IMG/VR virus record: IMGVR_UViG_2778261570_000006
Strand: one strand, 5' to 3'
DNA length: 8,071 nucleotides
Origin: a virus
Lineage: Duplodnaviria; Heunggongvirae; Uroviricota; Caudoviricetes
The position numbers and the translations under genes are program-made. The notes beneath the pieces were generated by a model. That model was not told the origin of the DNA and searched no databases. It saw nothing but the letters and a program-made list of their open reading frames with translations. Numbering within the stretch: position 1 is the stretch's first letter; each line of letters starts with the position of its first letter. Positions 1 through 5,501 of this stretch are shown piece by piece.

Positions 1-1360
1 GAATCGCTGATCGGACTTCGATGCCAATCCGTGATCGAATAGAGCGGAATACGCACTGCGTGTCCTGATGATGTTCAGTTGCGTCCGGTTCCATTGTTTC
101 AGCCTCTCCCTGTTCATCTGCCGTTGTTTCAGATGGTTGCGGTTTTTCTTCATCATCCTGTTTTCCTTCTTCTGTTACACGCTGCGGCATCGGGGCAGAG
201 GAGCGACCGCAGGCAATATCCACGATTTCCGGATCAGGGTTGGCATGATCGGTTTCAGTCAGTACTTTGTTCAGATATTCAGTGACGTGTGCGGGGATGA
301 CCTCGATCCCAATTGGTGCTTCTTTCACGGACGCAACCACGATGGCGCGGGAATAATCCAGCCCGCCAGGCATGGTGATGAATTTGTCGCGGAAAACAGA
401 AAAGGGTGGTTTATTTTCAGCGATAATTTCCTCAATGCGTTTAGCGTGTGCCGGATGAAGGTTATAGATGTCCACGTCCATTGAACGGGCCAGTACGCCA
501 GTGGCTACATCGCGCGCCAGTGACGTCAGATCGTGGACGAAACCTTCGCCGCGATCGGTGAGGTTCCCGCCGCCAGCATTAGCACCGGAAGCCGTGCGAG
601 TGATGCGTGAAACACGATTCCCTTTTCGCCATTCTTTTGTCAGAAGACCGCGATCAATGTGTTCGGTATCCAGCCAGGCTGAAATGAAATTCTTAAATTC
701 ATAGGGCTGATGTTTTTTCGTGATAGAGAACACTGCCTTAATTGCATCAGTCAGGCGGAGCAGGGCGGCATTATCCAGAGTTGTCGGTTCTGCCATGCTG
801 CGTATGGCCAACAGCAGATTCTGGACATAGCTGTTTTCCTGATCCATCTCAAGAGCAGTAATGTGTTTGCGTTGTTCACGGGTGGCATGATGCAGGTATT
901 TTCGATCCCCGGCTGCATACGTAAAAATGTGCAGAAGACGCTGTGTGAACCGCAAAGTGGCTACAGAGACTTCGCAATCCTGGCAATCCTCGTGGGCGTC
1001 TGCCTGCGCGTTTTCTTCCTGGCCTCCCGTCGGTTCTTCGGTTTCCGGTGCATCCTCCTGATGGTGAACGTCGTCTGGCGCTGCTCCCGGTTTTAGTTCC
1101 CAGGTCATGGAGTCTTTGCTGAGTTGATAGCGTTCACTCCAGGTAAAATCGATCTCACCTTCAGGGGGAAGGTCATTAACGACAGGAAAATTTGTGGCAA
1201 CAGTTTTAAAATAGTTGCTCAGTTTTTTACCTGACTTAACGATCAGGTAGTCCAGAGTGGCACAGGTTGATTCAAAATCGTCGCTTGCCCACAGGACGAC
1301 GTCAGGTTCACCGGATGATTTTTTCGCTTTCCGTAAAAGGAAGAGTGGTTTTGTGCTCAT
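1..1360 (-). CDS. recE: RecE-like exodeoxyribonuclease VIII, N-terminal ~453 codons; partial, 3' end lies beyond the window start
   Basis: Hand translation of the minus strand gives a stop-free frame from ATG 1360..1358 to position 1 (absent from the supplied ORF track because it has no in-window stop). GAGG sits about 10 nt upstream. The N-terminus [26 protein letters not shown] and the block [35 protein letters not shown] match my recollection of Rac RecE; not verified by alignment. Confidence 0.7.
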
Positions 1361-1430
1361 TGTTTTTTAACCTCATCTCAGATTAAAATTACTGCAAGTG
1401 ATGAATAAATGTCCCAGGTTCTTCACTCAG

Positions 1431-1460
1431 GCCTGCACGTTGTGCAGGCTTTCTTTTTTC
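1431..1460 (+). terminator. Intrinsic-terminator-like hairpin oriented for plus-strand transcripts
   Basis: GCCTGCAC (1431-1438) pairs with GTGCAGGC (1442-1449), followed on the plus strand by TTTCTTTTTTC (1450-1460). In the minus direction the hairpin is followed by CTGAGTGAAG, so it is not a leftward terminator. Confidence 0.45.
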
Positions 1461-1487
1461 AGATTTCACCTTTTAATTTCATTGCAA

Positions 1488-5242: not shown

Positions 5243-5462
5243 TACGTTTTTCACTTGCCTGGTATAGCAATCTCGCCAGCGAATCATAGCTACTGGGGCT
5301 CAGGAGAGAATCCCGTGAGTGATTTGTAAGAATCAGGTGGAAGCGGGTGAGAACTATAGCCCTGCATGTTACCAGGTTAACCATGTCGTGGTCGTGCTGG
5401 TTAATTTTGTACACAGTGCGCATGTGATTTTTAATTTTTTGGCAAACAGCCATTAAAGACAT
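5007..5462 (-). CDS. Hypothetical protein (151 aa), candidate; convergent with and overlapping the 137-aa ORF by 236 nt
   Basis: Track ORF. A perfect SD AAGGAGGT (complement of 5468-5475) lies 5 nt upstream of ATG 5462..5460, and a perfect -10 TATAAT (complement of 5502-5507) lies upstream of that. No recognisable family. Confidence 0.5.
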   Translation of the reverse strand: MSLMAVCQKIKNHMRTVYKINQHDHDMVNLVTCRAIVLTRFHLILTNHSRDSLLSPSSYDSLARLLYQASEKRITDPLSVSPVLALHILEDALYDPRQECDYQFLEAEKSMREWFVEYRERQQTLSSEYSELPQLRWSDLPNELFALTPEN

Positions 5463-5501
5463 GTCGAACCTCCTTTGGTTCTGTTGATTGGGGAATCACA
5501 G

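Follow-up and report, generated by a model that had tools for sequence, protein, structure and literature searches.

A predicted antisense RNA at the racC-recE junction of a Rac-like Escherichia coli prophage: second allele of the K-12 transcript t29 and candidate for OOP-like control

The DNA analysed here, referred to as the window, is a stretch of 8,071 nt from the viral record IMGVR_UViG_2778261570_000006. Over positions 1300-1560 it matches E. coli strain E9 (NZ_CP104500.1) with 100% identity, compared to only ~85% for K-12 strains. A previous reading of this DNA from its letters only (the sequence-only reading) had assumed that the window is the Rac prophage of K-12, and these matches contradict that assumption. 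Judged by sequence comparison, the window is a Rac-like prophage from a non-K-12 E. coli, with a locus orthologous to that of K-12 Rac. The gene order in E9 is int, xis, ralR, recT, recE, a frameshifted racC-like gene, ydaE and kilR, all of them on the minus strand of the window, and the order in the K-12 Rac prophage is the same. The recE-recT pair is the classic silent recombination system of Rac. Translation of recE starts at an ATG at 1360-1358 (minus strand) with the Shine-Dalgarno sequence GAGG at 1374-1371, as seen by direct reading, in the E9 recE annotation and in K-12. In the K-12 frame, racC ends with a stop codon at 1459-1461 (minus strand), as established by comparison with the annotation of E9 and K-12. 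Relative to K-12, the racC-like gene of the window is frameshifted, and it is annotated in E9 as a frameshifted pseudogene. A run of seven T residues near 1503-1509, where K-12 has eight, shifts the racC frame, so that the open reading frame of the window ends at 1488-1490. The length of this 3′ homopolymer varies between loci, with T8 in 162, T7 in 27 (including the window) and T9 in 7, and the tract may be prone to slippage.

The gap between racC and recE contains an intrinsic terminator hairpin on the plus strand (1429-1451), which was ranked first among the 16 terminator-like sites found by a terminator scan of the window. Its arms and loop read AGGCCTGCAC-GTT-GTGCAGGCTT and form 10 base pairs, 6 of them G-C, around a 3-nt loop; the tail reads TCTTTTTTCA. 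Directly after the stem at 1429-1451 comes TTTCTTTTTT. The T-run (TCTTTTTT), identified by direct reading and in the scan, occupies 1452-1459 of the plus strand, and all but its last base lie outside the racC reading frame. A G+C-rich hairpin, a short loop and a T-run on the transcribed strand, by which an intrinsic terminator is recognised, are all present in the window, and for the K-12 orthologue a Term-seq end in the U-run is given in the data of Adams 2021 (PMC7815308). On the opposite strand no T-run comes after the stem, so the terminator is unidirectional and serves plus-strand transcripts only. The sequence-only reading had likewise proposed a plus-only terminator made of this hairpin and T-run, and both its top rank in the scan and the lack of a T-run on the minus strand agree with that proposal. 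The stem core GCCTGC/GCAGGC is invariant and common to the window and K-12. The T-run is longer in the window than in the K-12 counterpart, and the window terminator is the stronger of the two. In the terminator scan of the window, no minus-strand terminator-like site was found between racC and recE. Further plus-strand terminator-like hairpins are located at 2032-2051, antisense to kilR, and at 991-1008, antisense to recE. Terminator-like sites are somewhat enriched across the whole window (16 found, 9.3 ± 3.1 expected).

A putative plus-strand promoter overlaps the translation start of recE. By direct reading, a -35-like hexamer, TTGTTT, is present at 1360-1365 (3 of 6 positions match the consensus), followed after an 18-bp spacer by a -10 hexamer, TAAAAT, at 1384-1389 (5 of 6). 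The first base of TTGTTT, at 1360, is the complement of the A in the recE start codon. Both hexamers are identical in K-12 and are spaced in the same way. TTGTTT is also unchanged in the 87 loci compared, with L037 as the only exception, and TAAAAT is missing in two loci, L035 and L036, which lack the RNA and racC as well. The promoter region of the window deviates from that of K-12 at one spacer base (1376) and, by a purine change, at 1396, where the RNA is expected to start. With 8 of 12 consensus matches, the pair scores below the threshold of the promoter scan, and sites of equal quality were found 16 times in the window compared to 21.9 ± 5.5 times in dinucleotide shuffles. On sequence alone, the promoter is not above chance. 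Of the promoter proposed in the sequence-only reading, the positions of the hexamers and the 18-bp spacer were confirmed, but the consensus match is no better than chance.

For the K-12 orthologue, the ends of a transcript from this promoter have been published. A class I primary transcription start site (TSS), FWD_(I)-1415447, is listed in NC_000913.2 coordinates in Table S2 of Romero 2014 (PMC4681348). The recE coordinates give an offset of +1976 from NC_000913.2 to NC_000913.3, which places this TSS at 1417423 in the latter. It lies 8 nt past the last base of the TAAAAT that is identical in the window, close to the ~7 nt characteristic of a primary (triphosphate) 5′ end made from a sigma-70 promoter, and we infer a sigma-70 start site in the window by transfer from K-12. 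The paper's list of small RNAs (Table S5, "Small RNAs in E. coli") contains an entry "t29" in the recE-racC gap with the start 1415447 and the orientation <- -> <-, for which no database entry is given and Raghavan et al. 2011 is cited (Romero 2014, PMC4681348). An annotation of t29 is absent from the MG1655 RefSeq record. In supplementary file 1 of Adams 2021 (PMC7815308), a plus-strand Term-seq 3′ end at 1417486 is classed as "antisense racC". The file spans three growth conditions and this end is entered three times; the two scores displayed for it are 185664 and 146140, compared to 92121 and 36200 for the terminator of Spot 42 in the same file. Position 1417486 falls within the T-run. Taken together, the TSS at 1417423 and the 3′ end at 1417486 delimit a discrete, abundant RNA of 64 nt, which folds with -24.9 kcal/mol (z = -4.9). 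Additional antisense TSSs, of class II, were mapped inside K-12 recE at 1415269 and 1414535 (Romero 2014, PMC4681348). In the alignment, flanking genes, orientation, promoter and terminator core all identify the window locus as orthologous to t29, with an RNA body that represents a second allele.

As the promoter hexamers are identical, the prediction of the RNA can be transferred from K-12 to the window. With the ends carried over from the K-12 TSS and Term-seq position, an antisense RNA of ~62 nt, allele A of t29, is predicted at 1396-1457 of the plus strand; its 5′ end is expected at A1396 or A1397 and its 3′ end at ~1456-1458. It seems very likely from this comparison that the RNA exists in the window allele. 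The segment 1396-1457 folds into two hairpins with -22.9 kcal/mol (z = -3.6). In folding, the 5′ hairpin spans 1397-1427 of the plus strand, with 1397-1401 paired to 1423-1427, 1403-1406 paired to 1418-1421 and a loop of 11 nt, and the second hairpin is the terminator (1429-1438/1442-1451). The sequence-only reading had suggested that the plus strand yields a short RNA with its 5′ end past TAAAAT and its 3′ end at the hairpin and T-run, which is in line with both published ends of the K-12 orthologue. The additional hairpin that it had placed at 1397-1405/1419-1427 was recovered by folding, in which 1397-1406 is paired with 1418-1427. In the window the plus strand folds better than the minus strand (-22.9 versus -18.0 kcal/mol), and in K-12 the two strands are nearly equal (-25.3 kcal/mol for minus versus -24.9 kcal/mol for plus). 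No Rfam match was found within 1360-1460 of the window at E ≤ 1, nor in the K-12 gap. A search for small open reading frames opposite or inside the RNA gave none that is conserved, and the plus-strand frames extend past the terminator. A GTG-initiated minus-strand frame is present in both alleles (1389-1469 in the window, 26 aa; 5410-5499 in the K-12 locus L002, 29 aa). It begins inside the last racC codons and spans the whole gap to just before the -10 hexamer. Only the first four residues (MKSE) are in common and the rest is unrelated; this frame is probably due to chance.

To compare the locus across Rac-like elements, 8 genomic and 80 viral-contig loci were collected via RecE and 120 more via the flank pattern. 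Across ~200 Rac-like loci, the RNA body occurs in only two deeply separated alleles, A (window type) and B (K-12 type). Wherever the promoter block and the end of racC are both present, the body is either A or B, and no third allele was seen among ~200 viral-contig loci with exact flanks. The two alleles are ~55-65% identical to each other, compared to ~97% in the flanks. Measured against K-12 in 30-nt windows, identity is 60-67% in 1381-1440 and ~97% in recE (1081-1380) and racC (1471-1860). The resulting island of allelic divergence, at 1392-1455, coincides with the RNA body. What both alleles have in common is the promoter, a similar length (62 versus 64 nt), a 5′ hairpin, the terminator and the T-run. 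The 5′ hairpin of allele B differs in sequence, and its AGUG/CACU base is present in both. The block of promoter and -10 hexamer is conserved across the alleles right beside the sharply diverged body, and the T-run is present in both although it is without coding constraint. Elsewhere in the window, a second and bigger block of low identity to K-12 (27-80% per 30-nt window) was observed at 600-1080 inside recE, which is otherwise ~97% identical to K-12 around this block; it likely reflects mosaicism in the part of recE that encodes the N-terminus. Smaller divergent blocks are located at 1861-1920, in ydaE, and at 2281-2340.

Comparison of the terminator stems of alleles A and B shows two base pairs that are altered on both sides (A-U to U-A and A-U to G-C). 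Stem cells are paired in 96% of cases, compared to 22-44% when the partners are slid. Since these compensatory changes represent only two lineages, the evidence they provide is modest. The terminator loop (1439-1441 in the window, same position in L003-L210) is highly variable, far more so than the sequence on either side of it, and the stems are largely kept. The loop forms are GTT, ACT, AGT, ACA, GTC, TCT and TGA and, in allele B, CCATA, TATGG, GCATA and TCATA. Some of them are exact inversions of each other (CCATA/TATGG, ACT/AGT), as template switching at an inverted repeat predicts. Four point variants of the stem were found, of which two keep wobble pairing on the plus strand only and two on the minus strand only. 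Because these variants do not discriminate and the K-12 sense strand folds alike, the assignment of the element to the plus strand rests on the T-run and the mapped ends.

Of 5426 complete E. coli genomes, 1781 carry the element, mostly as the K-12 type, and it is also present in sequenced Rac-like phages such as Rac-SA53. In L035 and L036 (region 1133-1500), an unrelated 114-aa gene is found in the place of racC, 23 nt upstream of recE. Similarity of these two loci ends just past the Shine-Dalgarno region, and they contain no -10 hexamer, RNA or terminator. From this distribution, the module appears to travel with racC and the gap. As L035 and L036 carry recE without the module, recE does not require it. 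A Citrobacter relative of RecE (L010, 42% identity) was also considered as a carrier and rejected, as the sequence upstream of its gene shows no relationship and contains nothing that is a convincing counterpart.

The arrangement suggests how such an RNA might act. A sigma-70-type promoter over the ribosome-binding region of recE would start a non-coding RNA of ~62 nt directed against the early-left genes, and transcription would end at the intrinsic terminator directly next to the stop codon of racC. Without a single mismatch, the predicted RNA could pair with the leftward transcript at the racC-recE junction, where it would cover roughly -37 to -97 counted from the recE AUG. No terminator-like site is present on the minus strand in the gap, so the sense transcript probably crosses this region, and pairing of the two RNAs could form a duplex of ~60 bp for RNase III to cleave. 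At the same time, polymerase bound to or firing at the antisense promoter might interfere with leftward transcription at the start of recE. The net effect would be that expression is damped across the racC-recE junction, or that recE-recT is uncoupled from racC. In the sequence-only reading, such an RNA had been suggested as a possible contributor to the silence of recE in Rac. Direct masking of the ribosome site is unlikely because the RNA starts ~22 nt upstream of the recE Shine-Dalgarno sequence. Several observations argue against this cis-antisense action. Neither the Shine-Dalgarno sequence nor the AUG of recE is covered by the RNA, the hairpins fold on the K-12 sense strand about as well as on the antisense strand, the promoter matches the consensus at chance level only, and recE is present without the module in L035 and L036. 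Additionally, the sense operon is mostly off in the lysogen, so that an abundant antisense RNA would have little to pair with. That the RNA is made from the window and also acts in cis at the junction in the manner of lambda OOP RNA is a tentative joint claim, to which we would give slightly less than an even chance.

A rather unlikely alternative is that the A/T-rich ribosome site of recE fires by chance and that the resulting short RNA regulates nothing, the terminator being kept only to stop antisense transcription from entering racC, ydaE and kilR. The sequence-only reading had likewise named, as its alternative, a terminator that insulates recE from antisense transcription. Chance promoters in A/T-rich stretches are common in horizontally acquired DNA, and the consensus match of the promoter is indeed no better than chance. 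The further class II antisense TSSs in K-12 recE (1415269 and 1414535), the dispensability of the module in L035 and L036 and the fact that a function of the RNA is unreported in the literature searched point in the same direction. On the other hand, the -10 block is conserved in both alleles beside a highly diverged body, and both have a two-hairpin shape of similar length. Its 3′-end signal is also very high and exceeds that of the well-known sRNA Spot 42 in the accessible part of the Term-seq file. Selection on the hairpins could alternatively operate in the racC-recE mRNA, where they might serve as a stabiliser or processing site at the 3′ end of racC, and the plus-strand T-run and RNA would then be incidental. 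In K-12, folding does not favour the plus strand over the minus strand, the compensatory changes do not separate the strands, and two of the four stem point variants keep pairing on the minus strand only, all of which is compatible with such a sense-strand element. We nevertheless regard it as improbable: the mapped TSS and 3′ end in K-12 demonstrate transcription and termination on the plus strand at this site, the T-run is found in both alleles without a coding reason, and in the window allele it is the plus strand that folds better.

The same low probability is assigned to a trans-acting sRNA that would be made constitutively in the lysogen and pair with host or phage mRNAs elsewhere, possibly via a chaperone such as ProQ. 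ProQ prefers short, highly structured RNAs, and the two-hairpin fold with its terminator is stable. According to the accessible Term-seq entries, the K-12 RNA is abundant in all three growth conditions sampled, and the same prophage encodes the antitoxin sRNA RalA, which has been described as trans-encoded. Against a role in trans, the alleles share little sequence in their unpaired parts, and when the window and 10 kb of Rac were scanned for duplex energies, a crude method, only the RNA's own locus rose above background. Furthermore, the accessible part of the Hfq RIL-seq candidate tables of Bar 2021 contains no racC entry and no genuine recE entry.

Returning to cis-antisense control, the two alleles might be specificity variants of an antisense control over the RacC:RecE ratio, possibly acting also in trans against an incoming Rac-like phage of the same allele. 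In that case, the RNA of the resident prophage would hit the early-left transcript of the incoming phage. This reading resembles the specificity groups that antisense RNAs form in plasmids and in phages P1 and P7, and we consider it very improbable.

Since the start, the 3′ end and a catalogue name of the K-12 RNA have already been published, the transcript is not a new discovery; so far, it is known only from supplementary tables. In the literature searched, three points had not previously been noted: that the RNA delimits a two-allele structure, that its geometry is OOP-like and that it sits between a reported blocker-trigger gene pair. The last point refers to a preprint in which racC and recE are described as a linked blocker-trigger pair for retron defence, where RacC blocks the retron toxin and RecE triggers it. 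If the RNA controls the junction, this could bear on the poor expression of recE and could explain the sharply bounded two-allele polymorphism.

Among known RNAs, the closest to the RNA of the window is t29 of K-12. Position, orientation, promoter hexamers, terminator core and two-hairpin layout are the same, with lengths of 64 nt for t29 and ~62 nt for the window RNA. The two differ in the body, which belongs to another allele and is ~55-65% identical, and in the T-run, which is longer in the window. Like the type I antitoxin RNAs Sok, Rdl, Sib and RalA, the predicted RNA is small and structured, with its own putative promoter and its own terminator, and would be expressed in the lysogen. An assignment to type I toxin-antitoxin systems was rejected, as no conserved small toxin frame lies opposite the RNA, and RalA sits elsewhere in Rac. 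The Hfq-dependent prophage sRNAs DicF, KilS and HnrS are likewise encoded by prophages, 50-100 nt in length and equipped with an intrinsic terminator, whereas the U-tail of the K-12 RNA is short. In the Hfq RIL-seq candidates (Bar 2021), as far as the tables are accessible, the locus is not represented by a racC entry or a genuine recE entry. HnrS, a 66-nt multicopy prophage sRNA, is another RNA: it is encoded among late genes, binds Hfq and is found mostly in EHEC and EPEC. The DicF-like/KilS element is located ~1 kb from the RNA, upstream of kilR. There, sub-threshold Rfam matches were obtained to DicF (32.4 bits in the window, 39.1 bits in K-12; gathering score 48) and to STnc100 (33.2 bits in the window, 28 bits in K-12; gathering score 47), at 2192-2444 of the window and 6223-6466 of L002, both on the minus strand. 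The K-12 DicF-like match lies inside the annotated sRNA kilS (b4833), and a DicB fragment is annotated nearby in E9; KilS may be a relative of DicF.

The mode of action proposed here is modelled on lambda OOP RNA (77 nt, promoter pO), which is likewise a short RNA directed against an early operon of a lambdoid phage. OOP acts on cII mRNA in an RNase III-dependent manner. There is no sequence similarity between OOP and the window RNA, and the operon opposed here is that of the left arm with its recombination genes. OOP overlaps ~50 nt of the cII coding sequence, whereas the window RNA reaches at most the racC stop codon. The geometry of the two loci is nevertheless alike, as in each a discrete antisense RNA, a predicted one in the window, spans the junction of two genes and its promoter covers the point where the downstream gene begins. 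The pO promoter of lambda has its -10 over the start codon of O, and here the antisense promoter overlaps the start of recE; OOP crosses the cII-O gap and has its terminator in the 3′ end of cII, and here the terminator is found at the racC stop codon. If the RNA indeed controls the junction, an OOP-like control point would be added to the left arm of a lambdoid prophage.
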